This document shows, in pieces, positions 15,032 through 62,974 of a stretch of DNA of 64,000 nt. Numbering within the stretch: position 1 is the first letter of the stretch; each line of letters starts with the position of its first letter. The notes beneath the pieces were generated by a model. That model was not told the DNA's origin, did no database searches, and saw only the letters and a list, made by a program, of their open reading frames with translations. The stretch covers positions 4,128,001-4,192,000 of the forward strand of contig OY762911.1 of the NCBI GenBank assembly GCA_963666565.1. Direction: 5' to 3'. The translations under genes and the position numbers were made by a program. Source of the DNA: Thermoanaerobaculia bacterium. GTDB taxonomy: Bacteria; Acidobacteriota; Thermoanaerobaculia; Multivoradales; Multivoraceae.

Positions 15032-15069
15032 CGTCCTGAGTCGCCGAAGGCAACGAACGAACGCGAGTC

Positions 15070-16809: not shown

Positions 16810-16891
16810 TCGATGATCTCCGGAGTTGCCGACGCGGCGAGCACCTGGGCTTCGCGATCGGGCGGAGTGAGCGAGGTCGGGTCGCGAGAGG

Positions 16892-18406
16892 TTACCTTCT
16901 GAGCAGGGATACGGCGGCGATCGTTCCCGGCAGGCCGGTCAGGCCGCCCCCGGGATGGCAACCGGCGCCGCCCAGCCACAGGCCCTCGACCGGGAGCGGC
17001 TCGCCCGCCCAGGCCGACGCCGTCGGCCGCAGCCACAGGCTCTGCGACGGGTTCATCTCGCCGTGGTGAAGACCGCCGGCCGTGGCGCCGTAGTCCGCCT
17101 CGAAGTCGGCGGGAAGCAGCAGCGCGTGCTCCCGGACCAGGCCGCCGATTCCTGGCGCCCACCGTTCGAGTTCGGCCGCCATCCGCTCCAGAAGCTCCGG
17201 GCCGCCCGCGTCCCAGCCGCCCTCGAGGTCGAACGGCAGGTGGTGCGCCGTCGCCAGCAGCAGGTGGCGTCCCGGCGGCGCCAGCGACGGATCGAGAGCC
17301 GTGGGAAGCGCCGCCTCGATCCACGGACGCTCCGGCAGCCGGCGGTACTTCGCGGCGTCGGCGGCACGTTCAATGAAGTCGGGGCGCTCCGCCAGGACGA
17401 TCCGCCCGGTCAGCGCCGGCCGCTCCAGCCCGGGAAACTCCGGCAGCCCGTCGAGCGACAGGGCCAGCCGCGCGGCGGCGCCGCGGTACTTCACGTTCAG
17501 CAGTCGCCGCACGAAACGCGGTTCGAGGTTCGGCGCGCCGATCAGGTCGAGGAAGGTCACGGCCGGCGTCGCGGTGGAGATGACGGCCCCGGCCTCGATC
17601 CGTTCGCCGTCGGCCAGGCGCACACCGGCGACGCGGCCCGCCTCGACGAGGATGCGGGAGACGGCGGCGCCGGTGCGGATCTCCGCTCCCGAGGCCGCGG
17701 CCGAAGCGGCCAGCGCGGCGGCGAACGCCCCGGCGCCGCCGCGCGACCGCACCACCGGCGCCAGCCGGTCCGAGCCGCTCAGGGCGCAGTGATAGAGCAG
17801 CGGCCAGCCGGTTCCGTTGGCGCGCGGGCCGAGCCCCGTCGCCGGGAGCGCGATGCCCGCGAGACCGGCGAGGAGCGACGGATTCTCGAAGCGCTCGCGC
17901 AGCATCTCGTCGAGCGGCGAACTCAGCACGCGCAGGAGCTCCGGCTCGATGAGCAGCCGCCCCATGTCGGCGAGTTCCGGCGGCCGGCAGAGGAGCGGCT
18001 CGAGCGCAGCGGCGCGCTCGGCCAGTTCGAACACGAAGCCCGGCCAGGCGGCGGCGTCCCGCCGGCTGACCCGGCCCAGGCCCTCGACGGTGCGCGCGAC
18101 CTCCGGCCACAGCACGACGGCGCTCGCGCCTTCCGTCGCCGGCACGGCGGCGACCGCCGGCGCCTCGATCGCCTCCAGCCCGTGCGCGCCAAGTTCCAGT
18201 TCCTCCATCACGGAACGGCGGAACATCCCCAGGTCGTTGCTTCCCACATCGACCCGGTGGCCGGGGATGAGCTGCCGCGTCGAGGCGAGACCGCCGAGTT
18301 CCGGGCGCGCCTCCAGCAGGACGACGTCCCGGCCCGAACGCGCCAGCAGCGCCGCCGCGACCAGTCCGTTGTGGCCGCCGCCTACGATCGCGACCCGGCC
18401 GCTCAC
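16892..18406 (-). CDS. Phytoene desaturase-like FAD-dependent oxidoreductase
   Basis: VAIVGGGHNGLVAAALLA, DPSLAPPGRH, GCHPGGGLTGLPG. Confidence 0.88.
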   Translation of the reverse strand: MSGRVAIVGGGHNGLVAAALLARSGRDVVLLEARPELGGLASTRQLIPGHRVDVGSNDLGMFRRSVMEELELGAHGLEAIEAPAVAAVPATEGASAVVLWPEVARTVEGLGRVSRRDAAAWPGFVFELAERAAALEPLLCRPPELADMGRLLIEPELLRVLSSPLDEMLRERFENPSLLAGLAGIALPATGLGPRANGTGWPLLYHCALSGSDRLAPVVRSRGGAGAFAAALAASAAASGAEIRTGAAVSRILVEAGRVAGVRLADGERIEAGAVISTATPAVTFLDLIGAPNLEPRFVRRLLNVKYRGAAARLALSLDGLPEFPGLERPALTGRIVLAERPDFIERAADAAKYRRLPERPWIEAALPTALDPSLAPPGRHLLLATAHHLPFDLEGGWDAGGPELLERMAAELERWAPGIGGLVREHALLLPADFEADYGATAGGLHHGEMNPSQSLWLRPTASAWAGEPLPVEGLWLGGAGCHPGGGLTGLPGTIAAVSLLRR

Positions 18407-48200: not shown

Positions 48201-49451
48201 ATGAGGATCGACTACCGCGACCCGCAGCACGAGCGGTTGCCGCACATCGTCCGGTTCTCGGGTGGCCGCTCGTCGGCCGCGATGACCTTCCTGCTGGCAG
48301 ATGCCGGCGTCCTGCAACCGGAGCGCGGCGACGTCGTGCTCTTCGCGAACACGTCCGCCGAACACCCGGGCACCTACACCTTCGCCGCCGAGTGCAAACA
48401 CCGGGTCGAGCAGGAGTATGGGATTCCGTTTCTCTGGTATGAGTTCTGCACCGTCGAGGACGCTTGGCGGGGCTCTTACCGAAGGAAGCTCTCCTACCGT
48501 CTGGTAGACGCCGTACCGGTCCAACGGGATGCCCAGCGCGGCTACCGCTCGAACGGCGAGGTCTTTGAGGAGCTCCTGTCGTTCCAAGGAATGCTGCCGA
48601 CGCCGATGTCGCGCTCCTGCACGTCGAAGCTGAAGCTCTACCCGCAGCACCTGTTGCTGGCCGAGTGGTTGGGGCCTGGCGACGGTCCGGCACACGACGG
48701 CCACCATGCGGAGCGGCCCTTCATGACCGCAGACGCGGCGATGCGCCTCTACCGCAAGAACCGCGGGAGCGCGAGCGAGGACAGCTACCGAGAGCGCGTC
48801 GCCTGCATGATCGGAAAGCCGCCGGCGCGGCAGAAACAGCGCTGGAGCGACTTCACGTCTCCTTCGTCCGACAGATGGGCAGCTAGGGAGTGGGCGCGAA
48901 ACCGTCCGCGGCTCGTCGAGCTCTGGGGGCGCAAGGCCGCCCGCTTCGTGACCCTACTGGGGCTGCGCGCGGACGAGCCCAGTCGCGTACGGCGAGTCGT
49001 GTCGCGATCTTTCTACGCCGAGGATGCGCCCAGGCGCCACTGCTCGGTGCGCACCCAACCGCCAGGCGAACGACCCTACTTCCCGCTCTTCGACGCGGGC
49101 TTCGGCACTGAGGACGTTCACGAGTACTGGAACGGCCGGAACTTCGACCTGGCCTGTCCATCCCATGCCGGCAACTGCGTCTTCTGCTTCATGAAGGGAA
49201 CGGAGCAGTTGGCGCGAGCATCCCAGCTCGAGGACTCGCTGCGCCAAGAGGGACGACCTTCGGACATTCGGTGGTGGGCGGCGATGGAGCGGAAGTACCG
49301 CCGCGAGGCGCCGAAGCGAAACGGCGAAGGCGTTTCCCGATTCGGTTTCTTGGGCGTATCCGGCCCGACCTACGAACAACTGGCGGCGGGCGACCCCGGT
49401 CGGCGAACCCGCTTCTCCGGCGGCGAGCCCGCCTGCGACTGCACGGACTGA
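48201..49451 (+). CDS. PP-loop (PAPS-reductase/adenine nucleotide alpha-hydrolase-like) Cys-rich protein
   Basis: FSGGRSS PP-loop, FANTSAEHPGTY, RSCTSKLK, GLRADE, GNCVFCFMKG, C-terminal CDCTD. Confidence 0.8.
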   Translation: MRIDYRDPQHERLPHIVRFSGGRSSAAMTFLLADAGVLQPERGDVVLFANTSAEHPGTYTFAAECKHRVEQEYGIPFLWYEFCTVEDAWRGSYRRKLSYRLVDAVPVQRDAQRGYRSNGEVFEELLSFQGMLPTPMSRSCTSKLKLYPQHLLLAEWLGPGDGPAHDGHHAERPFMTADAAMRLYRKNRGSASEDSYRERVACMIGKPPARQKQRWSDFTSPSSDRWAAREWARNRPRLVELWGRKAARFVTLLGLRADEPSRVRRVVSRSFYAEDAPRRHCSVRTQPPGERPYFPLFDAGFGTEDVHEYWNGRNFDLACPSHAGNCVFCFMKGTEQLARASQLEDSLRQEGRPSDIRWWAAMERKYRREAPKRNGEGVSRFGFLGVSGPTYEQLAAGDPGRRTRFSGGEPACDCTD

Positions 49452-51389
49452 ATGGCGGATCTGCACTTCCCACGCACCTGGAAGTCCGAAGGGCTCTCGG
49501 TCCAGTCGATGGCCCAGCACGACGGTTCCGCCGACCCCGTTGTCCGCGAGCTGCTTCAGAACTGCCTGGACGCCGCGCGCAAGGCGGGCCGGGCGACCCG
49601 CGAAAGCCCCCTGCGGGTGGCCTTCTCGATCAACGAGTGGCAGGTCGACGACTTACCGGGCATTGCAGCGTATCGGCGCGCATTCGAGGCGGCACGGAGA
49701 GAGGAACCCGCCGACCGGGCGACTCCGGCCGCAGCGGAGGCGATCAGACGCATCCAGAAGGCTCTGGACCAGGAATGGACGAGAGTGCTGTTCTGCGCCG
49801 ACAACGGCCACGGTCTGAATCGGGACCGGATGCGCGCGATCCTGTCGGAGGCACGCGGCGACAAGGGCGGTGACCGGCAGCTCGCAGGCTCCTATGGCCT
49901 CGGTCATCTGACCGCCTTCTCCGCCTCTGATCTTCGCTACGTCCTCTACGGCGGCCTGTCGAGCGAGGGCCTCTGCGTAAGCGGTCACGCGATCCTGGCC
50001 TCTCACTTCGATACGGCCGCCGGCCTCCACCGCGCCGGCGAGGGCTTTTGGACTGACGATCCCGAACCCGATCTGCATTCGTGCGACTTCCCGAACGAGG
50101 TCCCGCCGCTGCTGGAAGTCGAGATGGAAGAGATCGCGAGCGAGGACGCAGGTGGTGCCGGCACCGTTGTCTGCATTACCGGCTTCAACCACTTCCGGGA
50201 GCACGACGAACAAGCCGCAGTGAACGAGATCCTCCGCGTGGCGGCCACTAACTTCGTCGCAGCCATCGCCCGGGGGGAAATGGAGTTGGAGGTTCTGGCG
50301 GAGTCGAACGATCTCGAAGAGCGCCTCGACCGGAGGACATTGCAGGACCGCCTCAAAGCCCACTCGGGCCAGCAGCGCAGCCGCCGCGGTTCGGGGGGCG
50401 GCTGGCTTCCCGGCGCGCAGGCGTTCGCGGCTTGGCGGACGCTCCAACAGGGACGGAGGCTGGACGAAACAGAAGCAGGGGTGGAAGTGCTTCTGCGGCC
50501 AGTGACGGACCAGCCCAGTGCCCGCGGCCGAGTCAACGTGTTTCGAAACGGCATGTGGATCACGAACAGCGCGCCGGAGCTTCAGCCTGGCAGCTTTGTC
50601 GGCGCAAGACCCTTCGACGCGGTAGTCCTGCTCGAAGAAGGCGATCTGTTCGACCTCGTTCGCGCTTCGGAAGGGCCCGAACACCGAGGGATCGACCTGA
50701 AGCGGCTGAGCAAGGCTAGGCGCCGTGCTCTCGTTGCTGACTTGAACCAACTCGCGCAACGCCTGCGAATGGCAGCCGGGGAAGCAGCGGCCGCCGACCG
50801 GTTCCGGCCTCCGGGTTTCGCCGTGTTCGAGGGCAGCGACCTGAGAAGGGCTGAGCGGTTGCGCCCCCTGAGGCATCGGACGAGCGATGGACAGGAAAAA
50901 CCCAGCGCGCCTAGCCCCGGACCTGGGAAAGGCCCCCAACCGGTTCCCGGCGAACCGAACCCCAGAAACCTAAAGCCGGGCCGCGCCTTGTCCATGCGAG
51001 CAGCTTGCCGCCCGCTGCTGAACGGAGACGGGCTGGTGGACCGGGTCGCCGTCGACCTTGAGGTTCGCGACAGTCGTCTAACCCAGGCGTCTGAGCTTGG
51101 CTTCCGATTGCGACAGGACTCGGGCTCCGATGCGTCCTGCGAACAACCGTTCCCGCCGGTCTGGCTGGACCTGAGATCGATCGAGATCGTGGACGCCGCA
51201 ACGGCTGCCGGAGGCTCGAGGGCGCCCATCGGCCCGTCGAACGGAAGCGTCAAGGAACTTTCCCTGCCGGTCGGTGTCTCCCGGGTCATCGTCAGTCTCG
51301 GCGAACCGCTCGCCGACACCCGTGGCCTTCAGGTGGACCTTGTCCACAGGAAGGCGGAACGAGTGACCGCTCCCCAGGGGAAGCCATGA
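49452..51389 (+). CDS. GHKL (HATPase/MORC-like) ATPase
   Basis: RELLQNCLDA, DNGHG, GSYGLG, GTVV Bergerat-fold motifs. Confidence 0.8.
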   Translation: MADLHFPRTWKSEGLSVQSMAQHDGSADPVVRELLQNCLDAARKAGRATRESPLRVAFSINEWQVDDLPGIAAYRRAFEAARREEPADRATPAAAEAIRRIQKALDQEWTRVLFCADNGHGLNRDRMRAILSEARGDKGGDRQLAGSYGLGHLTAFSASDLRYVLYGGLSSEGLCVSGHAILASHFDTAAGLHRAGEGFWTDDPEPDLHSCDFPNEVPPLLEVEMEEIASEDAGGAGTVVCITGFNHFREHDEQAAVNEILRVAATNFVAAIARGEMELEVLAESNDLEERLDRRTLQDRLKAHSGQQRSRRGSGGGWLPGAQAFAAWRTLQQGRRLDETEAGVEVLLRPVTDQPSARGRVNVFRNGMWITNSAPELQPGSFVGARPFDAVVLLEEGDLFDLVRASEGPEHRGIDLKRLSKARRRALVADLNQLAQRLRMAAGEAAAADRFRPPGFAVFEGSDLRRAERLRPLRHRTSDGQEKPSAPSPGPGKGPQPVPGEPNPRNLKPGRALSMRAACRPLLNGDGLVDRVAVDLEVRDSRLTQASELGFRLRQDSGSDASCEQPFPPVWLDLRSIEIVDAATAAGGSRAPIGPSNGSVKELSLPVGVSRVIVSLGEPLADTRGLQVDLVHRKAERVTAPQGKP

Positions 51390-52156
51390 TCCCCGTGCTG
51401 CGCCAGGACGGTTCGAGTCTGGACTGGAAGTCCGCCACGTACCATGTGGACGTAGAGGCGAACGGCACTGGTGCGGTCGTCACTCACGAACTGAGAGACG
51501 CACCGGAGTTGGTCAGGCTGATCGAAGACGGTGCCGCCGCCTATGCCGTGGAAGCGCGCTGCCCTAGGACGCTCTTCGCCCGAACGTGGCTGAGCCGCAA
51601 GCAGCGGCTGGAAGTGGACTGGCGCGAGACCGACGTGGACGGCCAAGTCTTCCTGTTCCCCGGCGTAGTGGCCCTGAAGGAGACGTCCTTGGCGACCGCC
51701 GGCCTTATCGAACTATGGGAAGAAGATCAGGTCCGCGTGCCATTGGGCGCATGGCTCGCACGCGGCGCCGAGTTCGCCGCCAAGAATCTCGCCGCGTCGC
51801 TGATCGAGTTTCGCAAGGACGAGTCGCTTCAGTCGGGACGAATGAGGGTGGTCGAGGACACTAGCGGCGACGATGCCCGTTTCCTGGTCAAGCTCGCCCC
51901 AGAGTTGTACCAACGCGCAACGCAAGGGGACCGGGATGTCCAGGTGGCCGGGCTAATCGCCGCGTTCGCCAAGCTGCCGGACTCTCCACGCTTCGCTGAG
52001 GACTCGGCTAGTCCGGTCGCACGGATGCTCCGGGATCGGCTCGAGAGCGCGGAAGTTCCGACTTGGGACGACGGTTACGACTGGGATCCGGCTTGGGCCG
52101 CGACCACGATCGAGAAGTTCTACCCGGCGACCGCCGAAGACGAGACAGCGCCTTGA
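51386..52156 (+). CDS. Hypothetical protein
   Basis: ATGA overlap with the GHKL gene; long open frame with protein-like composition. Confidence 0.75.
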   Translation: MIPVLRQDGSSLDWKSATYHVDVEANGTGAVVTHELRDAPELVRLIEDGAAAYAVEARCPRTLFARTWLSRKQRLEVDWRETDVDGQVFLFPGVVALKETSLATAGLIELWEEDQVRVPLGAWLARGAEFAAKNLAASLIEFRKDESLQSGRMRVVEDTSGDDARFLVKLAPELYQRATQGDRDVQVAGLIAAFAKLPDSPRFAEDSASPVARMLRDRLESAEVPTWDDGYDWDPAWAATTIEKFYPATAEDETAP

Positions 52157-53142
52157 CACTGGAAACGAACGGTTTCCCTGCCGGCGAGGCAAAGTCGGCA
52201 TCCAGTCTCGCCGACGAGAGTCTTCGGGACCGCTACGGCCAGTGGGTGGCGGAGCTGATCTGGGTTGCGCGGGCCGAACGGCACCGGAACGATGCCGAAC
52301 GGGAACGCCGGCATCGCCATGTAACCCAGCGCCAACGCGAACTGCGCCGAGCGATCGGGGACGGGCCGAACACGGCCGCTGCGTGGCTTCGAACACAACT
52401 AGGGCTGGAGGAATCGGGAGCGCTCCTGATCGAAGCGCCGCAGCTGCCCCGGCCACTGACGGCCGACGAGTTCATCGAGCCGCCGTTCGAACTGGAGCTA
52501 GAGATCGGTCAAGCGCTTTCGGCCGAGATCACTACGCGAGACGCCGCCCGTCCCTGGTTCTGGCTGCTCTGCCACATCGCGTGGCTCGAACGGGGCGACA
52601 TCGCAGACAACGTTCGAAGGGCCTTCTGCTGGAGCAGCGCCGCCGCCGGCAAGTCGGACGAAACCGACCAGTTGGAGGCGGAAACCCGCAACTTCCTGCG
52701 CCGTACCGGCGGAATCGAGATGGTCCGAGGCAAGGTATCCGTACTCAGCGACTGTCCGCTCGCCCGGGCTTGGTGGCGTTACCGTCTTGCCCACAACGCG
52801 GCTCACACTGCAGGTGACGGAAAGGTCCTGAACGCCGCGGATGCCCACCGGTGCCTCCATCACAGCGGCCCGATCTGGGAGGAACTCGTTCGCCTGGGAG
52901 TGAAACGCCTGACCGTCGTCAACCACGACCGGGCCCGCGCCGCCGTTGTCGCGGCACTCGCCCAGGTCGTCTCAAGGGCAGCGCCCGATGGCAAGATCGA
53001 GTGGGGGACCCAGCACATTGCGCGAGCGGCCAAGGAACTCGGGCGGGAAGCGCTTGTCCGGTCGTTAGGACAAATCGAGTGGTCCGAGCTGTGCGGCATC
53101 GTGGAGAACGCGACCCCGGGGCCCGAGGGAGCCGCGTCTTGA
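52153..53142 (+). CDS. Hypothetical protein (possibly DUF6339-like)
   Basis: TTG overlaps upstream TGA. FWLLCHIAW...PLARAWW resembles the LxRxWW motif recalled for DUF6339. Confidence 0.6.
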   Translation: MTLETNGFPAGEAKSASSLADESLRDRYGQWVAELIWVARAERHRNDAERERRHRHVTQRQRELRRAIGDGPNTAAAWLRTQLGLEESGALLIEAPQLPRPLTADEFIEPPFELELEIGQALSAEITTRDAARPWFWLLCHIAWLERGDIADNVRRAFCWSSAAAGKSDETDQLEAETRNFLRRTGGIEMVRGKVSVLSDCPLARAWWRYRLAHNAAHTAGDGKVLNAADAHRCLHHSGPIWEELVRLGVKRLTVVNHDRARAAVVAALAQVVSRAAPDGKIEWGTQHIARAAKELGREALVRSLGQIEWSELCGIVENATPGPEGAAS

Positions 53143-55241
53143 CCACCGCCCTCACTCTCCCGTCCTCACCGCCAACCCCCGGCAACCCTTGGGGCGTCGC
53201 CCGCACACCGCTCGTGCCCGGTGCCTATCGGCGCCGATACGGTGACAGCACGGCAGCTCGCGACCTGCGGAACGCGGTCGCCAATCCGAACCTGACGCTC
53301 CACGACTTGGGCGCGCGCTTCTGGGACAAAGCGCCTTGGTCGACCGTGCCTCGGAGGGCTTTCAAGAGCCTCCGCCTCCAGCTCGCGCGATTCCGGGTAC
53401 CCTCGGACGTCGAAGTGCTGGTCGCGGGTACGCGCACCGAGCACCTGTTGGCTCTGCCTCTCGGTACCCGCGCCCACAACTTCATCAGGATCGCCGGGCA
53501 GGAGGAAGCGGTCGAAGGTCGACTGCGGCGGACCCTAACGGCTGGCGACGTGCTGGCGTATCGGAATGCGGGCGTCATGGTACTGCTCGAACTGCTCGCG
53601 GTCGTCGAAGGTCATCGATTAGCGCAACGGCCGGCCTCGGAAGCGGGCGTTGACCGGCCAGCCGCTGAACAGAGCGAGCCATCGGACGACAGCGCAATCC
53701 TCTTGCCAAAGAGATTGATAGACCTGCTGGCGGTCGCTCGCGAGTTCCGCAGCGCCACAACTCTGAAGGAAGCGCTCGAACTCGATGGCAGCTCTCTTGC
53801 CGAGCGAACCGGCCTCGCGGCTGAACTGGACGCAGTGAGCCTCGACGACCTAGGGATCGGCGAGGGCATGACTCACGCAGCCGGTCTGCTCGCGGAGACC
53901 GAGGCCTTGGATTCGGAACTGACCCAGCATGAGGAGACGATCCTCCAACGTCGGCTCTTCCGCCGGCGGCCGGCCACACTTGCGGCGCTCGGCAAGCTAC
54001 AGGGGATCACAAGAGAGCGTGTCCGCCAGATCGAGTCCAAGCTGAAGAGGCGACTCGAGAGCCGCCTCGGGCGACGCGTCGGAATCGTAGCCGGTGCAGT
54101 AGCAGAACGGATCGCACCGATCTCCCGGCCCGAGGAGATCGACCGACAGATCGGAGCAGTCTTCGAAGGCCGAGATCATCCTTCGGTCCCACTCGCTTGC
54201 CGGATGCTCCGCAGCCGGCTGGGCTACCGCGCCAAAGGCGAACTGGAACTGAACGAGGACGCCTCCAAGGCAGTGACCGAGCTTCGCAGCTTCGCTCGCG
54301 AGCAGCAGGACGACGCCGGTCTGCTTGACGAGGACACGCTTCAGTCCCGGCTGGCTGACCTGTCCTGGGCGGAACACTGGGAACTGCTTGTCGAGACTTG
54401 CGGCTTTCACCGGATCGACGGCCTCCTGGGACTCCGCAACACGAAGAAGGCGCGGGTCAAGGCCGCCGTCCTGAACATCGGCCGGATCGCTTCCAGGGAA
54501 GAGATCGCGGCCAGATGCGGCCTCTCCCGGCAACGCACCGTCAGTTACCTCTCGGCACTGCCGTCTGTCGCTCGGGCAGATCGAACGCGTTGGGGCCTCA
54601 CCGAGTGGATCGACGATGTGTACGAAGGCGTCGCGAACGAGATCCTGCAGCGGATCGACGAGGACGGCGGCGCTACCCGTGTCGAACGCGTGCTCGACGA
54701 ACTGCCGCGACTGTTCGGCGCGACCGAGGCGACGGTCCGAGCGTACCTAGCAGCACCGCAGTTCGAGGTTCGGAGCGGCTGGGTTCGCCGGGCCGACCCA
54801 TCGGCAGTGCGACTCCGCCCGCTCGACGACGCGATCGACGGGCGGGACGAGCTCGGAAGGCCGTGCTGGAGCTTTCAAGTGAAGGCGGACTACTTCAAGG
54901 GTTACAGCTTGGCGGGCCTGCCGCCGGAGATCGCCCGTGAGCTGGGTTGCCCTCCGAACGGACGCACTGAAGTACGCCTTGTCGAGCCGTCGGACTGCCG
55001 CCCATTGAGCCTGACCTGGCGGCTCACTTCGTTGACGGGTCCCAATCTCGGCTACTTGTCCACGCCGCTGGAGCGCCTGGGAGCCAAGGCTGGCGACCGC
55101 GTGCAGCTCATCCTGCGCGGCAACGGCTCGGTCGAACTCCGCCGGAACGGTCGACGGGTGTCGCCTAGCGATCCAGGCGCCCCGCCCAAGCCTGCCGAGG
55201 AAATTCTCGAACGCCTCAAGCAAAGGCGCCAAGTGCTGTAG
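53139..55241 (+). CDS. RNAP alpha-CTD-like + sigma70 region 4 HTH + winged-helix protein
   Basis: LPLGTRAHN...LAYRNAGVMVLLEL (alpha-CTD-like), LTQHEETILQRR...TLAALGKLQGITRERVRQIE (sigma4), RWGLTEW. Confidence 0.75.
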   Translation: MTTALTLPSSPPTPGNPWGVARTPLVPGAYRRRYGDSTAARDLRNAVANPNLTLHDLGARFWDKAPWSTVPRRAFKSLRLQLARFRVPSDVEVLVAGTRTEHLLALPLGTRAHNFIRIAGQEEAVEGRLRRTLTAGDVLAYRNAGVMVLLELLAVVEGHRLAQRPASEAGVDRPAAEQSEPSDDSAILLPKRLIDLLAVAREFRSATTLKEALELDGSSLAERTGLAAELDAVSLDDLGIGEGMTHAAGLLAETEALDSELTQHEETILQRRLFRRRPATLAALGKLQGITRERVRQIESKLKRRLESRLGRRVGIVAGAVAERIAPISRPEEIDRQIGAVFEGRDHPSVPLACRMLRSRLGYRAKGELELNEDASKAVTELRSFAREQQDDAGLLDEDTLQSRLADLSWAEHWELLVETCGFHRIDGLLGLRNTKKARVKAAVLNIGRIASREEIAARCGLSRQRTVSYLSALPSVARADRTRWGLTEWIDDVYEGVANEILQRIDEDGGATRVERVLDELPRLFGATEATVRAYLAAPQFEVRSGWVRRADPSAVRLRPLDDAIDGRDELGRPCWSFQVKADYFKGYSLAGLPPEIARELGCPPNGRTEVRLVEPSDCRPLSLTWRLTSLTGPNLGYLSTPLERLGAKAGDRVQLILRGNGSVELRRNGRRVSPSDPGAPPKPAEEILERLKQRRQVL

Positions 55242-55259
55242 GCCGACCGGAGACGAACT

Positions 55260-57521
55260 GTGCTTGCTGACGAAGCGACGCTCGAACCGCGGCTTTATCG
55301 CCTGCCCGACGATCCTGTGGCGGATCGCGTGTTGATCCCCGGATTCCGTTCGGCGACATCGGTTCGGGGCGCGTTCGGTTGGTTCGGCGCCGGCTGGATT
55401 CGCCAACTTGCGCCGGGGCTTGCCCACTACCTGAACCGAGAAAGCCCGCAGCCGATCGAATTCACCGTGGCCCCCCTTCACTACGAACCGGAACTGGCAG
55501 CGATGAGAGCAGCCCAGACAATGTCGGCGAAACAGGCGACGGAGCGAGTGGCGCACCTATTCGTCAACGGTCGCGTCGACCGGTCCGCACTGGGCCGCCA
55601 CGCTCTGGACTGCTTGGCTTGGATGCTCACCTGTGACCTCCTCCGCCTGCAGGTCGCGGTGCCGGAATCCGATTCGAACTTCCACCCCAAGATGTGGCTC
55701 TTCTCCGACGGGGACGGTCGAGTGCTGGCCCGCGGCTCAGGCAACGCCACGGGTATGGGTGTTGCGTCAGGTATCGAGCAGATGGACGTTGACGTCTCCT
55801 GGATCAAGGAGAGCCGCCAGCGCGTGTTGCAGGGCGAGCGCATCCTTTGCGACTGGTCCAGCGCGCGTGGGGCCGGTATCGTGGAAGTGGTCCCTCTTCC
55901 AGAGGCGCTAAAGCGGAAGATCATCCGTGTGGCGCCGTCATCGGCACCAAGCCCCGACGACTACCTAGTGGCGGCCGCCGAAGACGGAAGCCCGCGGTGG
56001 GCGGTGGACGCCTGGCAACAACTGGACGCCCGCCTCCGCAGCGTTCGTGGCCGCGGATCGGCGCCCCGACTCGAGATTCCGGCGTGGCTCGAATGGGAGA
56101 CTGGCCACTACGGCCACCAGAAGGAAGCCGTGGATGCCTGGGAGGCAGAGCCGGAACCCGAACGCGGCACGCTCGCCATGGCGACGGGAGCGGGCAAGAC
56201 GTTGACGGCCCTGATCTGCGCTGCCCGGGCGCAGGACCGGCTGCCCGGCGGCTCGGCCTTCGCCGTGGTCGTCGCGGCGCCCTCCCGGCCCCTCCTGCTG
56301 CAGTGGAAGGAAGAGGTGTCGAAGTTCGGCGTCGCCGCAGAAACGCCAACCTTCTCTTCCGACACGGCCGCCTCCCTGACTAACTTCCTGCGCGGGCTGG
56401 ACGGTGATGGCACCCGGGTTGCGGTTGTGACCAACAACCTGCTCTGCACGTCGTCGTTCCAACGAACACTCGAATCGGGACTGCGCGGACGACCGTCGCT
56501 GCTGATCGCCGACGAAGCGCATCGGCTTGGCGCGGAAGGGTTCATCCGCCAGACGCCAAACTTCTTTGAACGGCGCTTGGCCCTTTCCGCCACACCGGTA
56601 CGCCAGTACGACCCGGATGGGACCGAACGGATCTTCGAGTTCTTCGGCCCACCCGTCTACGAGTTTGGTCTGGACCGGGCTATAGGCTTCTGTCTGGTCC
56701 CGTACGACTACCATGTTCACGCCGCAACACTGGACGAAGAGGAGACGGACGAGTTCACGCAACTGACCCGCAAGATCGGCGCGGCAATGGCCGGTGCCGA
56801 GGATCGAAAACCGAGCGACCGCGAACGAGAAGCCCTGAACGGGTTGCTGCTGAAGCGCCGGCGAATCATCGAGGCGGCGGAGGCGAAGATCCCGCTGCTC
56901 CAGGCCGTGCTGGAGCGCCGCGGACCGCGAAGGATCGAGCAGGCGCTGGTCTACGCATCCGCCAAGAAGCGGGACCAGTTCGAACGCATCGGCCAGGTAC
57001 TAACGCAACTCGGGATTCGCTGGGCACCGGTTACGCAAGAGGAGACAGCCCAACGGTCGAAGCTCGAAGGAACGTTGGAGGCGTTCCGCACGGGCGGCCT
57101 CCAAGTGCTCCTGGCGAAGAAGGTTCTCGACGAAGGCGTCGACATTCCGTCGATCCGCGAGGCGTACATCGTCGCCTCATCCACGGTCGAACGCGAGTGG
57201 GTGCAGCGCCGCGGTCGAGTGCTTCGCCGCCATCCCGGAAAGGAGTGTGCGGTCGTGCACGACTTCCTCGCCCTGCCGGTGGCGAGCACCGTCCGAGGGG
57301 GCGACCAACCGCTCAAACGGCTGGTACGGAGGGAACTGGAGCGAGCGCTCGCCTTCGCCGGATACGCTCGAAACGCCGCCGGCTCCGCAGGTGCGCTCGC
57401 CTGGATTGAGCGAATCCGCGAGACGTTCTGGCCAAGTCGGCGCCAGCGCTACGACCAACTCGCCGAAACGCCAAGCTACCAGAGAATCGCGCCAACGCTC
57501 GAGGGGAGAGACGCGAGATGA
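55260..57521 (+). CDS. PLD-nuclease::SF2 (DEAH) helicase, restriction-like
   Basis: FHPKMWLFSD...GSGN (HKD), MATGAGKT, DEAH, LSAT, DEGVDIP, QRRGRVLR. Confidence 0.88.
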   Translation: MLADEATLEPRLYRLPDDPVADRVLIPGFRSATSVRGAFGWFGAGWIRQLAPGLAHYLNRESPQPIEFTVAPLHYEPELAAMRAAQTMSAKQATERVAHLFVNGRVDRSALGRHALDCLAWMLTCDLLRLQVAVPESDSNFHPKMWLFSDGDGRVLARGSGNATGMGVASGIEQMDVDVSWIKESRQRVLQGERILCDWSSARGAGIVEVVPLPEALKRKIIRVAPSSAPSPDDYLVAAAEDGSPRWAVDAWQQLDARLRSVRGRGSAPRLEIPAWLEWETGHYGHQKEAVDAWEAEPEPERGTLAMATGAGKTLTALICAARAQDRLPGGSAFAVVVAAPSRPLLLQWKEEVSKFGVAAETPTFSSDTAASLTNFLRGLDGDGTRVAVVTNNLLCTSSFQRTLESGLRGRPSLLIADEAHRLGAEGFIRQTPNFFERRLALSATPVRQYDPDGTERIFEFFGPPVYEFGLDRAIGFCLVPYDYHVHAATLDEEETDEFTQLTRKIGAAMAGAEDRKPSDREREALNGLLLKRRRIIEAAEAKIPLLQAVLERRGPRRIEQALVYASAKKRDQFERIGQVLTQLGIRWAPVTQEETAQRSKLEGTLEAFRTGGLQVLLAKKVLDEGVDIPSIREAYIVASSTVEREWVQRRGRVLRRHPGKECAVVHDFLALPVASTVRGGDQPLKRLVRRELERALAFAGYARNAAGSAGALAWIERIRETFWPSRRQRYDQLAETPSYQRIAPTLEGRDAR

Positions 57522-57751
57522 ACAATATCGACCGAGTGGCCGCGGAGATCCGCCAGCGCGCCGCACAGGAGTCGGTTGACGGACTGAGTGCGGACGAACT
57601 GGTCACCTTCCTGCTGGAAGTCGTGAACGTCGAGGATCTCCACCTTCGGCGTCCCCGGAACGTGCAGAAGGAGGTCGACACCATGGTGCGCGCATTGGCC
57701 CGGCGATTGGCCCCAAAGAACCCAACTCCGACCGGAGACAGCGGATGCTGA
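57518..57751 (+). CDS. Small helical hypothetical protein
   Basis: ATGA overlap with the helicase and overlap with the SMC gene start. Confidence 0.7.
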   Translation: MNNIDRVAAEIRQRAAQESVDGLSADELVTFLLEVVNVEDLHLRRPRNVQKEVDTMVRALARRLAPKNPTPTGDSGC

Positions 57752-59994
57752 AGTTCAAGCGCATCGAGATCCGCAACTTTGCCGTCTTCGAGCACCTGGA
57801 GGTCGAGCCGTCGACGGATCCTGAGGGCCCGCTTACGGTTGTCCGTGCCGAGAATGGCTCCGGCAAGACGACCTTCCTGCGAGCCCTCCTCTGGGGTATG
57901 TATGGGGAGAAGGGACTGCCCGGAGCGAATCCCGGGCGCTACTCCGTCCATCCGGCATGGTGGCGCCCTGACGAGCAAGGAGTCCAGACGACGGTAACGA
58001 TCGAGTTCGAGACCGATGGCTCCGACCGACACGATCCCGCCGCCGGTACCAAGATGGACGCCTACCTGCTAAGTCGATCAGTGACGACAGTGAGGCGCGA
58101 TGCTGCCCGCGACGACGAGCCTGACTTCGAGCGCCGGGAAGAAATGCCCTCGCTCATGAAGCGAGTAGATTCGGGCGCTTGGGAACCGGCCAACGTAGGT
58201 GTGGACGCGGCCGTCCAACAGTTACTTCCCTGGGACCTCCGCGACTTCTTTGTCATGGACGCCGATCAGGCGGCGGACTTCGTGGGCGGTACCGAGAACC
58301 GTCAGATCAGCGTCCACGAGGTCGAGAAGAAGACAACGGACGCCGTTCGAAGTCTGCTCGGCATCGACGTCTTTGAGGCGGCGGCGAACCGCCTGCGGAA
58401 GGCATCAAGGAACTTCGGGAGCGAGGCGACGAAGACCGTCAAGGATCACGAACTCCACCAACTCCAGGCGGAGCAGAATCGCCTGGAAGATCGAGTGGAA
58501 CAGATCAAGGGCGATCTGGACAAAGCACGGGAGGACGCTCGCGACCTGAAGGGCAGGCTGGATGACCGCAGCCAGCGACTCAAGGAGGAACTCCTCCACC
58601 AAGGAGCGTACGAACCCCTGGTCAAACTCAGGGACGAAGCACGGAAGAAGCAGGAGACATCCCGCAACGCCCGTCGTGAAGCGGCCGCCGGTTTGGCGGC
58701 CGGGTTGGCGGACGCCTCACTCTTCGCACCGTTGGCGTCGCCGGCTCTCCTCCGCGTTGAGGGAGCCCTCAAGCCTCTCCATGACGCCGGCAGGATTCCG
58801 CTGAAGCACGTCAGCTTCGTTCGACAACTGCTTGAGCGCGGCGAATGCGTCTGCGGGCGACGCTTGGACACCGACACGGAAACGCGTAGCCGGGTCGAAG
58901 GGGAACTCGCACGTTCCGCCGAACGTGAAGAAGAGGCGGAGTACCTAGGGCGGCTCTATGAAGCGGCCGCTCACCATCGGGCGGCAAAGACGGGAGCCGG
59001 CTGGAGCGCACGCAAGAAGCGGCTCTCTGCCGAGATCGCGCGGGCCAACTCTTCGGCCAACGAAGCCAGCCTGGAGCTTCGGGACACGGAGCGGAAGCTC
59101 GACGGGATCGATCAGGAGAAGGTCCGGGTACTTCGCGCCGAAGAAGCGGCGCTCACGACCCAGTTGGAAAAGAAGCAGCAAACGGTCGGCAGTCTCAACC
59201 TTCAGCTTGAGACGATGTCGAAGTCGCTCTCCGGCGTAAGCAAGCGCCTCGTGGCCGCCCAGCGCAGGCATTCCGCAGCCGCCGACAGCACCGCCGCACG
59301 GGACCTGGCGAGCCTGGGAGCCAGAATTCTTGACGACTCGGTCGCGGAGCTAAGGAAGCGACAGGTGAAGGACCTCTCCGATCGAATGAAGCGCTTGTTC
59401 GACCAGATGGCCGCGAACGTCACGGACGCCGATTTCGACGGCGCCGAGGAAGGACGCGAATCAGTCCGCATGATCGCACGGGTCGGCATCCGCCCAGTCG
59501 AGGACAGCCTAGATCGCTTCGAGATCTTCGCCCTGAACCACCGCGACCGGGTCATGCCGCCGACCGAGATCAACGGCGCCTCTCGCAGGGTGCTCGCCGT
59601 GTCCTTCGTTCTCGCTCTCTGCCAGGAGTCCCGTACACATGCGCCGCTCATCGCCGACTCCCTGTTGAACTCCATGTCCGGAGCGGTACGACGCAACACC
59701 CTGAACGCTACGGTGGAGAACTCCGAGCAGCCGATCCTGCTGCTGACTGGGTCGGACCTGGAGGGAGAAACAGAGGTCGCAACGGTCCGCCGCTTCGGGG
59801 GTGCCGTCTACACGCTTACCGGGCAGTGGGACGCAGTCGCAGCCGGGCGGGGAGGCGATGTCGTCCGACAGACTTCAAGCAATGCCAATGTCGCCGTGCT
59901 GTGCAAGTGCGGGCCGCGCCAGTTCTGTGATGTCTGCGAGCGTCAGGGGCAGCGCGAAGCCGCAGGCTGGTCCGAACGCGCAGCGACCGACTAG
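57745..59994 (+). CDS. DndD/Rad50-like SMC-family ATPase
   Basis: AENGSGKTT...WGMYG, DFFVMDAD, coiled coils with central ECVCG hook, PLIADS Walker B, C-terminal CKC..CDVC. Confidence 0.85.
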   Translation: MLKFKRIEIRNFAVFEHLEVEPSTDPEGPLTVVRAENGSGKTTFLRALLWGMYGEKGLPGANPGRYSVHPAWWRPDEQGVQTTVTIEFETDGSDRHDPAAGTKMDAYLLSRSVTTVRRDAARDDEPDFERREEMPSLMKRVDSGAWEPANVGVDAAVQQLLPWDLRDFFVMDADQAADFVGGTENRQISVHEVEKKTTDAVRSLLGIDVFEAAANRLRKASRNFGSEATKTVKDHELHQLQAEQNRLEDRVEQIKGDLDKAREDARDLKGRLDDRSQRLKEELLHQGAYEPLVKLRDEARKKQETSRNARREAAAGLAAGLADASLFAPLASPALLRVEGALKPLHDAGRIPLKHVSFVRQLLERGECVCGRRLDTDTETRSRVEGELARSAEREEEAEYLGRLYEAAAHHRAAKTGAGWSARKKRLSAEIARANSSANEASLELRDTERKLDGIDQEKVRVLRAEEAALTTQLEKKQQTVGSLNLQLETMSKSLSGVSKRLVAAQRRHSAAADSTAARDLASLGARILDDSVAELRKRQVKDLSDRMKRLFDQMAANVTDADFDGAEEGRESVRMIARVGIRPVEDSLDRFEIFALNHRDRVMPPTEINGASRRVLAVSFVLALCQESRTHAPLIADSLLNSMSGAVRRNTLNATVENSEQPILLLTGSDLEGETEVATVRRFGGAVYTLTGQWDAVAAGRGGDVVRQTSSNANVAVLCKCGPRQFCDVCERQGQREAAGWSERAATD

Positions 59995-60012
59995 GGAACG
60001 GAGGAGCGACCC

Positions 60013-60516
60013 ATGAACTACTTCGAGAGCAGACTGCGAGCACAGGCCCACACACTCGCGCTGCCCAAAGATCTGCGCGACGACGTGGACCGCTATGTCC
60101 AGAGTCATCGACCCGGCGCGGATCCTGAGCAGGCACCGTTCCCGCGACGTCTCGATCTCTGGGCCTACGGGATCTTCGCGGCTCTGGCACTGGGACTCGA
60201 ACCGGAGGACCAGTCCAAGACAAGGCGAACCACCTACAAGTTCAAGGACACGGCATCCGTGAACATGTCGTCCGAACTCTGCGAACTGCTTGCTGTCGTG
60301 GCCGCGGCCGGCCTAGGACCCGAGAACGAACGGGTCACCGAACCAGCGGAGATCATCCGATACGCCAACTGCTTGGCCGCTGTCGGTTGCCCGGTCGTGA
60401 TCGGCGAACTCAACAAGGTGGACCTTCGGCTGACTCCGCTGGAGAAGATGGTCCGCCACGCGGAGACGCTACTTGAGAGGACTCAGGAGCACCTGAGAGC
60501 GGCGATACCAACGTAG
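60013..60516 (+). CDS. dnd-system-associated protein 4 / DndE-like small protein
   Basis: APFPRRLDLWAYGIFAALALG...IIRYAN..G resembles the protein that follows DndD-like ATPases (recalled similarity). GGAGG RBS. Confidence 0.5.
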   Translation: MNYFESRLRAQAHTLALPKDLRDDVDRYVQSHRPGADPEQAPFPRRLDLWAYGIFAALALGLEPEDQSKTRRTTYKFKDTASVNMSSELCELLAVVAAAGLGPENERVTEPAEIIRYANCLAAVGCPVVIGELNKVDLRLTPLEKMVRHAETLLERTQEHLRAAIPT

Positions 60517-60548: not shown

Positions 60549-60700
60549 ATGACAGAACGGCATGTAGAGATTCAGGGACTCCAGTACAACCAGAACGGTT
60601 GCTTGGAGGAAGTACAACACGGGACGACTCCGCTCGTCACGGCGCGTGAACAAGCCATGGAGCGGATCATGCCGGAGTCCCAGCCGTATGAATGCGGAGC
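60549..60700 (+). pseudogene. Degenerate Phd/YefM antitoxin relic
   Basis: MTERHVEIQGLQYNQNGCLEEVQHGTTPLVTAREQAMERIMPE keeps the spacing of the Phd consensus but with many substitutions. Confidence 0.4.
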
Positions 60701-60865
60701 ACAATCACCCTATCTTCCCGGGGATGGGAGGGTTGCGGAAGATCAGGCCGTTGGTCCGCCGGCGAGGCGAGGGCAACATGGACGACATCGTGAGAGAAAA
60801 CCGGCGGTGAGTTCCCTCTACGGGGACACGAGCGCCCTCAGGAGCTCCGCGGAGGCCATGGCTGG

Positions 60866-61339
60866 ATGAAACCGAGTGTCTACATCGAGACCTCGGTAGT
60901 CAGCTATCTCACCGCTCGGCCTTCCCGGGATGTCATGGTCGCTGCCTACCAGGACGTAACGCAGCGCTGGTGGGCAAGTGCGCCCGCCAGGTTCCGGCTC
61001 TTCGCCTCCGAGCTGGTACACGACGAGGCCGGTGCCGGCGACACTGGTGCCGCTCGCGCACGCCAAGACGCCCTCCACGGGATTCCGCTGCTTGAAGCCA
61101 CCCGAGAAGACGGCGAGCTTGCAGCGAAGCTCTTTGAGTTCCGGGCCGTGCCGCGGAGCGCGGCGAACGATGCCGCCCATGTCGCCATCGCGGCCGTCAA
61201 CCGTGTTGACTACCTCGTTACCTGGAACTTCCGCCATATCGCCAACGCCGCAATGAGATCTAGAATCGAAGACGTCTGCAGCCGTGCGGGTCATCGGCCG
61301 CCCGTCATCTGCTCCCCCAACCAGCTCATGGAGACATGA
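60866..61339 (+). CDS. PIN domain (VapC-like) protein
   Basis: VYIETSVVSY...DAAHVAIA...YLVTWNFRHIAN. Confidence 0.88.
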   Translation: MKPSVYIETSVVSYLTARPSRDVMVAAYQDVTQRWWASAPARFRLFASELVHDEAGAGDTGAARARQDALHGIPLLEATREDGELAAKLFEFRAVPRSAANDAAHVAIAAVNRVDYLVTWNFRHIANAAMRSRIEDVCSRAGHRPPVICSPNQLMET

Positions 61340-61590: not shown

Positions 61591-61818
61591 ATGCGCATCA
61601 CAGTGACCATCGACGATGACGTGCTGGCTACCGCCAGGGCGTCGGCCGCGCGCAAGGGCTGCAGCCTGGGCCGCGCCCTGTCTGAACTGGCTCGGCGCGG
61701 ATTCACGACCGCCATCCCAGTCCGAAAGGGCGATGACGATACGGCGTTTGCCGTTCGCGCGGACGCGGAATCCATCACCAACGACGACGTACACCGATCC
61801 TTGGCCGACTGGCCGTGA
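61591..61818 (+). CDS. CopG/VapB-type RHH antitoxin (orphan)
   Basis: MRITVTIDDDVLATARASA...SLGRALSELARRG. The overlapping GTG frame (VKALPTR*) ends immediately. Confidence 0.75.
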   Translation: MRITVTIDDDVLATARASAARKGCSLGRALSELARRGFTTAIPVRKGDDDTAFAVRADAESITNDDVHRSLADWP

Positions 61819-61882
61819 AGGCACTGCCAACCCGCTGATCGCCTTTGACGCCAAGAACGCTGCCTGGGCTCGCCGACTACGG

Positions 61883-62093
61883 TCAACTCTCCCCGAGGAG
61901 TCTCATCTCGTACGAGTTCGCCACCAAGAGGCGTCCGAGCGTGGCGAGCATCTCGAACGGATCACTCCCGTCGATCTTCTCCGCCTCCATCACTTCCCGC
62001 ACATCGCTCCGGCTGGTAGGCGGGATCCGCACCTCGAAGAAGGGCCAGAGGAAGTTCGCCCGGTAGCGCTCTGTTGTCTCCGGAAAGGCCGAA
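61883..62093 (-). pseudogene. C-terminal fragment of a HipA-N-terminal-domain-like protein truncated by ISL3
   Basis: AFPETTERYRANFLWPFFEVRIPPTSRSDV...DPFEMLATLG. The 5' part is replaced by the IS end. Confidence 0.5.
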
Positions 62094-62974
62094 GGCTCTT
62101 CCGGGTTGATGGTGGAAATCGCGTAGTGTGGCGCGATGCGCGACACAGACTTGTACGGTCGGATTCTCGGCATCGAGAGTCCCTGGAAGGTGACGGACGT
62201 CGAGTTGCGGATCGAGTCCGGCGAGGTGGAGGTTCTCGTGGCTCGTGGCGCCGGCGAGTCCTATCGTTGTCCGAAGTGCGGCGGCGCTGCGCGCCGGCAC
62301 GATTCGCGTCGTCGGCGCTGGCGGCATCTGCCGACGTGCCAGTACCGGACGATCCTGACCGCGGACGTGCCTCGGGTGCGGTGCGCGGAGCACGGAGTGC
62401 TGACGATCGGCGTGCCCTGGTCGGACCCGACAAGTTCCACGTCGCGGCCCATCTGGGCGACGCCGTGAACCGGGTGCGGGTGGCGGAGCACCGAGAGCTG
62501 CAGAACCGGGGGGACGACCGGCTGGCCGGCACCCGGTACATGTGGCTGTACCACACCGACCGGTTGCCGGAGAGGCATGCGGCCTCCTTCAAGACCTTGG
62601 TGAACGCGACCTGGAAGACGGCGCGTTGCTGGCACCTGAAGGAGGTGGCGATGATGATGTGGGAGACGCGGGACCGCGTCGAGGCGCGTGAGACCTTCGA
62701 CGGCTGGTACTCGTGGGCGATCCGCAGCCGTCTCGAGCCCATGAAGGAAGTCGCCCGCATGATCAAGGCTCATCTCGACGGCGTGCTGAACGCGATCGAG
62801 CGGGGCGTCACCAACGCCCGCCTCGAAGGCATCAACTCGGTCATCCAGTCGCTCAAGAAGACCGCCCGCGGCTACCGGAACCGCGACCGGTTCCGCGACG
62901 CCATCTACTTCCATCTCGGCGGCCTGAACCTCTACCCTGATTCCCTCACGTTCCACACGAAACCCTGAAGAGCC
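62094..62974 (+). mobile_element. ISL3-family insertion sequence, internally deleted
   Basis: Imperfect terminal IRs ggctcttccgggttgatggtggaa and ttccacacgaaaccctgaagagcc; ISL3 transposase motifs inside; no target duplication. Confidence 0.88.
62136..62968 (+). pseudogene. ISL3 transposase, deleted and frameshifted near 62425
   Basis: Frame 1 has CPKCG...WRHL...PRVRCAEHG..VPW. It jumps to frame 2 with DKFH...TNARLEGINS...ARGYRN. Confidence 0.88.

Follow-up and report, generated by a model that had tools for sequence, protein, structure and literature searches.

A stretch of 64,000 nucleotides from a Thermoanaerobaculia bacterium (GCA_963666565.1, contig OY762911.1), referred to below as the window, was analyzed with a focus on the operon at positions 48201-60516. 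This region contains nine open reading frames (ORFs), g1 to g9, all co-oriented on the + strand. g1 and g2 abut, adjacent genes overlap by 4 bases at g2/g3, g3/g4, g4/g5, and g6/g7 and by 7 bases at g7/g8, and gaps of 18 bases each separate g5 from g6 and g8 from g9. The start codon is TTG for g4 and g5 and GTG for g6. An earlier reading of the letters (the original prediction) had described nine co-oriented genes with overlapping or abutting junctions, and all of these held when the coordinates were checked. The PP-loop and Cys motifs of g1, the GHKL boxes of g2, the HKD-like and helicase motifs of g6, and a Walker A motif with CVCG in g8 are seen directly in the translations. The G+C content of the operon (65.6%) is below that of window positions 1-48200 (70.4%) and close to that of the downstream flank (65.4%). 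The operon is thus more AT-rich than its upstream flank, as had been claimed, but not than its downstream flank; the AT-richer island extends from the operon to the end of the window.

The complete g1-g9 order was also found on a metagenome contig (L084), with protein identities of 71-87%. Because the same order recurs there, the nine-gene arrangement is not due to chance. A metagenome scan with the PbeA query gave one locus only. To describe the distribution of g1-g4, a survey with one genome per species was used, in which 101 loci were confirmed and 80 of them (L001-L080) were kept. These 80 loci come from at least five phyla. In 75 of them, g1 to g4 follow one another in the same order and on the same strand (collinear), whereas PbeC is present in only six of the 80; g1-g4 are therefore separate from the Pbe genes. 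The operon consists of three parts, namely a cassette (g1-g4), g5, and a PbeABCD module (g6-g9). The original prediction of a single undescribed nine-gene system was not upheld, because its phospholipase D (PLD)-type helicase, 77-amino-acid protein, SMC-like ATPase, and last gene are those of the described PbeABCD/CxC-ABC-ATPase system. Its novelty is confined to the four-gene cassette, which is undescribed and mostly occurs without Pbe (74 of the 80 loci lack PbeC).

The PP-loop enzyme g1 and its chassis

g1 (48201..49451) encodes a 416-residue, SspD-like PP-loop ATP pyrophosphatase of the PAPS-reductase clade and is the predicted writer of a DNA mark. The motifs SGGRSS (residues 20-25), RSCT (138-141), GLRADE (254-259), GNCVFCFMKG (324-333), and WW, and the C-terminal CDCTD (412-416), were invariant across the 25 sequences of an alignment (A1) comprising the window protein and 24 of 120 listed homologs. 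An AlphaFold 2 model of g1 had a mean predicted local distance difference test score (pLDDT) of 75 and a predicted template modeling score of 0.80. Its best structural alignment was with the PAPS reductase 7rge (Z 10.4; root-mean-square deviation 3.8; 177 residues aligned), followed by the APS reductase 2goy (Z 10.3) and 7lhr (Z 10.0). GMP synthetases (9.8), CysH, and NcsA (9.4) lay within one Z unit of the best match, and Cap9 (8.7) and TilS (8.6) were further relatives. In all, 22 chains reached Z of at least 8, and those listed are PP-loop or related nucleotide-binding enzymes. The invariant SGGRSS and the matches to PAPS/APS reductase folds place g1 in the PP-loop ATP pyrophosphatase superfamily. 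In a Foldseek search of the PDB, on the other hand, g1 gave only weak N-terminal matches (E about 0.1 over 70 residues), and a PDB sequence-profile search gave nothing significant.

The closest sequence relative found was a bona fide SspD of 269 residues (2.7e-112 on the respective PADLOC model), encoded next to SspA and SspC. The hhalign comparison with this protein gave 96% (E 4.9e-9) over 179 columns and covered the SGG, RxCT..LK..P, GxRADE, and C..FCF motifs. Two inserts in g1 (about residues 85-120 and 157-250) and its Cys-rich CDCTD tail are absent from SspD. By sequence, g1 is thus an SspD-like enzyme enlarged by these inserts and the tail, having the PP-loop core motifs of SspD and lacking both a full-length match to the SspD model and the SspA, SspB, and SspC partners. 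The original prediction that the PP-loop enzyme is not DndC agreed with our results: g1 had no TIGR03183 match at E <= 0.01 and no PADLOC DndC match, and its hhalign value against the DndC of locus L090 was 1.5%. The match to PADLOC BrxP was 7.5e-4 only. The phage-type layout that had been proposed for g1 was borne out in part, in that g1 has some likeness to the "PAPS reductase family" proteins of phages and plasmids. Among viral structure models, g1 matched an unnamed Vibrio phage protein best (E 6.2e-8) and phage PAPS reductases next. Searches of plasmids, phages, and viral contigs with g1 gave only partial or distant matches of this family, and none of the 10 viral loci matching g1 has g2-g4.

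g2 (49452..51389) encodes a 645-residue GHKL (Bergerat-fold) ATPase. Its boxes ELLQNCLDA (residues 33-41), DNGHG (117-121), and GSYGLG (146-151) were invariant in 16 sequences (alignment A4, which takes in 15 of the 79 loci with g2). With motifs I (ExxxNxxD), II (DxGxG), and III (GxxGxG) all present, g2 is assigned by sequence to the GHKL ATPase superfamily. It matched PADLOC PDC-M33A at 8.3e-19 and the NCBIfam sacsin-type ATP-binding domain at 9.2e-7, below the cut-off of the latter. A profile search of the PDB with g2 gave the HSP90 N-domain (E 0.0016) and weak matches to MutL and MORC3. The 256-residue protein encoded by g3 (51386..52156) is a beta-sandwich plus helical protein (AlphaFold 2 pLDDT 91.8) and a PDC-M33B homolog, probably a non-catalytic adaptor. 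It matched PADLOC PDC-M33B at 1.3e-6, and alignment with a true M33B by hhalign (alignment A2, 21 of the 77 loci with g3) gave 96.2% (E 2.2e-9) over 236 columns, the full length of g3. Structure and profile matches of g3 were generic FN3/Ig domains only (Z <= 7.5, and likewise in Foldseek); the PDB sequence-profile search gave nothing significant and the ESM Atlas gave unnamed clusters only.

g4 (52153..53142) encodes 329 residues and had no direct family match in the Pfam, PADLOC, and NCBIfam scans, nothing significant in the PDB sequence-profile search, and no usable match in the ESM Atlas. When its alignment (A3, 20 of the 75 loci with g4) was compared with M33C, hhalign gave an E value of 1.8e-5 over 157 columns (g4 residues 126-319), with RN...RG...D...SR.WW as the common stretch. 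The C-terminal two thirds of g4 are thus probably distantly related to PDC-M33C (DUF6339), and a conserved motif in its N-terminal part is predicted to dock g1. The complex of g1 and g4 was predicted in a three-chain job, in which g1 was scored as the partner of g4 combined with g3 residues 1-250. Individual runs gave 0.58, 0.72, and 0.67 and an overall score of 0.67, and the best control scored 0.00. Of 80 solved complexes, 58 attain this level, as do 2 of 110 mismatched pairs, a calibration that is rough for a three-chain job with its own alignments. The runs agreed in at least 87% of contacts with a partner pLDDT of at least 83. The predicted interface joins g4 100-114 to g1 87-93 and 164-174, and residues 100-114 of g4 are the conserved motif, outside the region shared with M33C. 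These models support the binding of g4 to g1. ORF clustering had merged g3 and g4 as if they were paralogs; the merger came from run-on ORFs, and BLASTP shows no similarity between the two. Antisense ORF clusters 5, 6, 8, and 17 over the cassette were dropped as high-G+C artefacts.

Among 401 genomes of the phylum, 14 had a match to the PDC-M33 family. Three of these were strong, with PDC-M33A loci in the genome of the window itself (L113/L102), in G461 (L114/L101), and in G552 (L103). In all three, M33A-M33B-M33C are immediately preceded by a co-oriented gene for a C5 cytosine methyltransferase. The methyltransferase assignment is supported by PADLOC MTase_II scores of 3e-63 (L113) and 5.9e-69 (L114) and by a tblastn identity of 61% (E 1.5e-137) at L103. 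In G461, a Vsr gene follows the M33 genes. The true M33 A, B, and C proteins score 3e-92, 4e-40, and 2e-33 on the PADLOC models, and M33C is Pfam DUF6339 (1.3e-39). By comparison, the sequences of g2-g4 appear to be those of distant relatives of PDC-M33 and not of members. Because g2-g4 match M33A, M33B, and M33C in order, g1 takes exactly the position that the DNA methyltransferase has in the homologous chassis; no methyltransferase lies upstream of g2, and the PP-loop enzyme occupies that position instead. This kinship with a chassis normally accompanied by a Dcm-type methyltransferase had been missed in the original prediction, which was incomplete in this respect. The true PDC-M33 operon in the genome of the window (G000:C1, about 3297100-3303400; L113 8137-14375) comprises the Dcm-type methyltransferase, M33A, M33B, and M33C. 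M33C was matched there in two pieces (12030-12617 and 14214-14375) about 1.6 kb apart, with a 540-residue ORF that has no Pfam or PADLOC match, and this arrangement suggests an insertion into M33C. In a further genome of the genus of the window, a diverged cassette (L104, G600:C7:552136-555922) has a g1-like gene (E 2.6e-104) and a GHKL gene nearer to PDC-M33A (4.8e-30), and may stand midway between the two types of chassis.

Restriction-modification (R-M) operons in which GHKL ATPases accompany cytosine methylases, Vsr, and HNH genes were reported by Iyer, Abhiman and Aravind in 2008 (PMC2292703, partial text). Judged by analogy, the chassis of the cassette looks like these operons: the three-gene order is the same as in the GHKL (MORC/paraMORC) R-M operons and PDC-M33, and HNH genes are occasional neighbors. 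The cassette differs from PDC-M33 in that the Dcm-type methyltransferase (and Vsr) is replaced by the PP-loop enzyme and in that g4 has the extra N-terminal part predicted to dock g1. The terms PAPS, PP-loop, and phosphorothioate do not occur in the available part of PMC2292703.

The PbeABCD module and the sigma-4 protein

g6 (55260..57521) encodes PbeA, an HKD (PLD-family) nuclease fused to a superfamily 2 (SF2) helicase. It matched the PADLOC PbeA model at 8.8e-150 over residues 13-707 and TIGR04095 at 6.7e-97 (325 bits, below its 600-bit cut-off), contains the Pfam domains ResIII, DEAD, and Helicase_C, and has an HKD-like motif (residues 142-150), GSGN, GAGKT, and DEAH. g7 (57518..57751), which overlaps the PbeA and PbeC genes, encodes a small 77-residue protein without a match in the hidden Markov model (HMM) scans of Pfam, NCBIfam, and PADLOC, as expected of the fast-evolving PbeB. 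It is conserved (32-72% identity in L001-L005 and 74% in L084) and is assigned to PbeB by position and size only. The product of g8 (57745..59994) matched PADLOC PbeC at 1.6e-44, and also matched PADLOC DndD at 5.5e-22 and TIGR03185 at 3.9e-27 (below cut-off). With a Walker A motif (residues 38-42) and a CVCG hook (368-371) in addition, it is identified as PbeC, the DndD-like ABC ATPase whose coiled coil bears a CxC zinc hook. g9 (60013..60516), in the position of PbeD, the DndE cognate, encodes 167 residues and was without a match in the Pfam, NCBIfam, and PADLOC HMM scans, so that the "dnd-assoc-4-like" label given to it earlier was not sustained. A tblastn search related g9 to the gene that follows PbeC in L089 (32% identity, E 1.6e-9), a gene that itself has no PADLOC match, and the identity of g9 was 52-85% in L001, L004, L005, L007, and L084.

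According to PMC10853773 (partial text), PbeABCD consists of the HKD nuclease-SF2 helicase PbeA, the small, fast-evolving PbeB, the CxC ABC ATPase PbeC, and the DndE cognate PbeD, and is coupled to DndCDEA, coupled to cytosine methylases, or found alone. The same four parts in the same order as in the described system (Xiong et al. 2019, PMC6459918; Rakesh, Aravind and Krishnan 2024, PMC10853773; partial texts) are recognized in g6-g9, the PbeB and PbeD counterparts by their position, and g6-g9 are assigned to it on this basis. The window differs from the described PbeABCD loci in that the module is joined to a PP-loop/GHKL cassette and a sigma-4 protein and not to DndCDEA or cytosine methylases. 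The archaeal-type coupling to DndCDEA is absent, and g1-g4 fill the upstream slot. As the original prediction had stated, DndA, DndB, DndFGH, and a methyltransferase are absent from the operon; DndC (TIGR03183) was likewise not found in the genome of the window, a single contig that is 97% complete. The same prediction had used the SMC-like ATPase as a scaffold of the writer, which is contradicted by its assignment to the restriction/scanning module (PADLOC PbeC). The available main text of PMC10853773 mentions neither "GHKL" nor a non-DndC PP-loop partner; its supplements, of which Data S1 may list such neighborhoods, were not covered.

g5 (53139..55241) encodes a 700-residue protein of a rare family. 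Its Pfam Sigma70_r4 match (3.7e-7, residues 260-301) agreed with the sigma-4 half of the earlier "alpha-CTD/sigma4" description, a sigma-70 region-4 helix-turn-helix; alpha-CTD was absent from the Pfam scan of g5, and PF03118 was precomputed on 3 of its 41 homologs. These 41 were the only homologs in a set of 5.8 billion proteins, and nearly all have the sigma-70 region-4 domain. Among the 80 cassette loci, g5 occurs in five, every one with Pbe genes, and its position varies. In the window, L002, L003, and L084 it separates g4 from PbeA, and in L007, where PbeA is missing, it separates g4 from PbeC; it is upstream in L005, follows PbeD in L001, and is absent from L004. g5 would be a regulator or a DNA-binding coupler.

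Distribution and partners of the cassette

More than 1000 homologs of g1 are without a Pfam domain, and the only name among the 120 listed is "hypothetical protein". The identity of g1 across phyla was 52-68%, typically 55-60%, and 73 of the 80 loci were from other classes and phyla. The taxa represented were Thermoanaerobaculia, Bryobacterales, Dehalococcoidia and other Chloroflexota, Acidimicrobiia, Longimicrobiales, Gemmatimonadota, and Opitutales. The median identities of g1-g4 were 57, 38, 41, and 38%. Of the five loci without the collinear order, two (L037 and L050) are at contig ends, L058 has DUF262 in place of g4, L026 lacks g3 and g4, and L066 has g1 alone. In L058, the DUF262 gene (14051-15301) begins 4 bases before the g3 stop and g4 is missing, as if replaced. 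Two diverged copies of the cassette stand in tandem in L036 (5959-14885) and L043 (about 7400-15500), which are from Longimicrobiales/Aldehydirespirator-type genomes. Many loci are from bins named after sponge-associated candidate taxa (Poriferisodalis, Poriferisocius, and Hopanoidivorans cymbastelae); the identity that g1 keeps across phyla suggests horizontal spread of the cassette within one kind of community. Within the genus of the window, strong g1 matches were obtained in its own genome and 5 of 20 others, and PbeA in 0 of 9 sampled genomes. Because both are patchy within the genus, the cassette and Pbe are accessory.

The six cassette loci with PbeC (L001-L005 and L007), five of which have PbeA, are all from Thermoanaerobaculia. 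g4 directly abuts PbeA in L001, L004, and L005, and PbeA identity is 62-81% across three placements of g5; the linkage of the cassette to Pbe outlasts the rearrangement of g5. The conservation of the neighborhood, a check proposed with the original prediction, was thus observed both for the nine-gene order (in L084) and for g1-g4. Among the 401 phylum genomes, PbeA homologs were found in the genome of the window and two others only. One of the two, L089 (G351:C1:1098000-1117900), has SspC-SspD-SspA-PbeA-PbeC-PbeD at 6035-17066, and the other, L090, has DndB-DndC-DndD beside PbeC-x-PbeA. The SspC ORF of L089 has about 200 extra N-terminal residues.

SspE (PADLOC 9.5e-263) lies directly after g4 and co-oriented in L049, and an 82%-identical homolog (tblastn) is placed likewise in L052; in L048, a 29%-identical SspE-like gene diverges from g1. 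No match to the SspD model was found in these three genomes. Partial SspE matches of 83 residues in L025 and L026 were left out of this count. In 14 of the 80 loci the cassette is flanked by HEC-05-like DUF262 genes, which in L047 and L054 share a 4-base overlap with the g4 stop, and HNH genes were found in 11. SspE, DUF262, and HNH partners are nucleases linked to DNA modification. At least one of Pbe, SspE, DUF262, and HNH was present in 26 loci. Other recurrent neighbors were PDC-S01 ATPases (nine loci) and Schlafen/AlbA_2 proteins (six loci).

Interpretation of the composite operon

On its sequence, the operon unites a known restriction/scanning module and a previously undescribed cassette of the PP-loop/GHKL type, in which g1 most plausibly marks DNA, and the modification-plus-restriction logic of the original prediction is the best-supported reading. 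We consider it about an even chance that g1-g4 write a DNA mark, probably phosphorothioate, that is used by PbeABCD, with g5 coupling the two. In this composite system, the PP-loop enzyme g1 replaces the C5 cytosine methyltransferase on a PDC-M33-like chassis and would be docked by g4 through its conserved N-terminal motif. The GHKL ATPase g2, with g3, would provide an ATP-driven engagement of DNA. Using ATP, the PP-loop, and its conserved cysteines, g1 would put an adenylation-dependent mark on host DNA, most likely phosphorothioate with sulfur from a housekeeping cysteine desulfurase. The CxC ABC ATPase and its DndE-like partner would scan DNA, and the HKD-helicase PbeA would act on DNA without the mark, by which PbeABCD would tell self from non-self. 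g5 would regulate or couple the cassette and PbeABCD. The role of g1 as a mark writer is suggested because it takes the place of the DNA methyltransferase of all three chassis, and phosphorothioate leads as the mark because g1 is homologous to SspD, because of which partners recur, and because of the writers that adjoin PbeABCD elsewhere.

Several observations weigh against this composite. g1 is very divergent from known writers, with 17.1 bits on Pfam PAPS_reduct (cut-off 22.5), a PADLOC SspD score of 1.1e-7 (29.8 bits) with no single significant stretch, and the 1.5% obtained with DndC. The g4-M33C link stands at only 78% in hhalign, and none of the nine operon genes encodes a cysteine desulfurase. 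The cassette-Pbe linkage is limited to one class and may represent a single acquisition event. No Pbe, SspE, DUF262, or HNH gene lies within 10 kb of 54 of the 80 cassettes, and the cassette may be complete alone or an orphan writer. SspE was present in 3 of 201 genomes of the order sample, two of which have neither the cassette nor an adjacent PADLOC match; SspE adjacency as proof of coupling is weakened by such orphan SspE genes. PbeABCD itself has been reported alone in many bacteria (PMC10853773, partial text). For PDC-M33, itself a candidate system, no paper naming this family or DUF6339 was found in the literature searched, which was limited in coverage and without supplements.

The main rival, to which we give a clearly smaller though appreciable chance, is that two independent neighbors share a defense island: the cassette would be a complete R-M-like system in which the chassis reads or restricts and g1 marks, and PbeABCD would act alone. 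The large share of cassettes without a recognizable nuclease partner nearby fits this explanation, as do the self-contained true PDC-M33 operons (methyltransferase, A, B, C, and sometimes Vsr) and the unrelated PDC-S01 and Schlafen/AlbA_2 defense genes that adjoin other cassettes; CxC/Pbe systems have also been reported to be independent of modification genes (PMC10853773, partial text). However, the genes are packed from g1 to g9 with codon overlaps and 18-base gaps, the g4-PbeA junction was kept through three placements of g5, g5 is seen only in composites, and both other PbeA loci of the phylum sample abut a PAPS-reductase-type writer.

It is unlikely, but still worth weighing, that g1 writes a DNA mark other than phosphorothioate, such as a base thiolation, an amination, or another adenylation-activated change, in parallel with the cytosine methylation of PDC-M33. 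In the chassis g1 replaces a base-modifying Dcm enzyme, its PP-loop relatives at similar Z (GMP synthetase, NcsA, TilS, and Cap9) act on bases or nucleotides, and the operon has no desulfurase, while the two large inserts and the CDCTD tail set g1 apart from the 269-residue SspD. Against such a mark, no sequence relative found is closer to g1 than a true SspD, which is encoded next to SspA and SspC, and the recurring partners SspE and PbeABCD were described with phosphorothioation (PMC6459918 and PMC9646914, partial texts).

Most PP-loop enzymes act on RNA, nucleotides, or cofactors. It is nevertheless improbable that the cassette modifies no DNA and that g1 is an effector, metabolic, or RNA-modifying enzyme under a GHKL complex (tRNA thiolation, nucleotide depletion, or QueC-like Cap9 protein conjugation), as this general tendency and the Cap9 match would allow, since g1 holds the position of a DNA methyltransferase in the homologous chassis, its neighbors are DNA nucleases and DNA-scanning ATPases, and a patchy occurrence within the genus with 55-60% identity across phyla fits mobile defense and not housekeeping.

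In the known phosphorothioation writers (Dnd, Ssp, and BREX type 4), the partner of the PAPS-reductase-like enzyme is an ABC or DUF499 ATPase. The composite reading resembles DndABCDE and BREX type 4 (BrxP) in that a PP-loop writer of the PAPS-reductase clade would be teamed with an ATPase, and differs from them in that DndB, DndE, DndD as a part of the writer, BrxC, PglZ, and BrxL were not found among the nine genes. With SspABCD-SspE it shares an SspD homolog, a PP-loop writer accompanied by an ATPase and two accessory proteins, and SspE after the cassette (L049 and L052). On the other hand, no SspA desulfurase, SspB (DUF4007), or SspC (DUF499 P-loop ATPase) is found among the nine genes, the ATPase is of the GHKL type, and g1 has 416 residues compared with 269 for SspD. 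In the cassette, the PAPS-reductase-like enzyme is instead teamed with a GHKL ATPase, and the chassis is one on which a cytosine methyltransferase is found elsewhere. The BREX paper PMC12839542 contains no GHKL, HSP90, PP-loop, MORC, or CxC terms, and no paper joining GHKL to PAPS reductase/PP-loop or phosphorothioation in defense was found, within a limited coverage of the literature that left out supplements.

If the composite reading is true, DNA-marking enzymes of unrelated chemistry would be swappable on one targeting machine, and the operon would be a modification-restriction system whose writer may represent a new class. More tentatively, and somewhat less probably than the composite itself, the cassette would be a fourth, undescribed family of writers of DNA phosphorothioate (or of another sulfur- or adenylation-dependent mark). 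In such a family, a DUF6339-like adaptor would bring an SspD-derived PP-loop enzyme to a GHKL clamp, and this enzyme would be evolutionarily interchangeable with the Dcm methyltransferase on the same chassis. Horizontal transfer would have carried the family into at least five phyla, its hosts including many sponge-associated candidate taxa, with PbeABCD, SspE, and split DUF262/HNH as three different readers. With its more than 1000 unnamed, Pfam-less homologs, the cassette family predicts DNA modification in uncultured lineages. How DNA is marked for DndDE/CxC systems without DndC is a question raised by Rakesh et al. (2024; PMC10853773, partial text), and the cassette is a candidate answer to it.

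Directly after g9, at window positions 60549-61339, there are two overlapping ORFs of 106 and 157 residues with no Pfam match at E <= 0.001, an arrangement that, by analogy, resembles a toxin-antitoxin pair. An ORF at 61616-62968 has an ISL3 transposase domain in its C-terminal part only (residues 272-428); it is probably a remnant and marks the edge of the low-G+C island.

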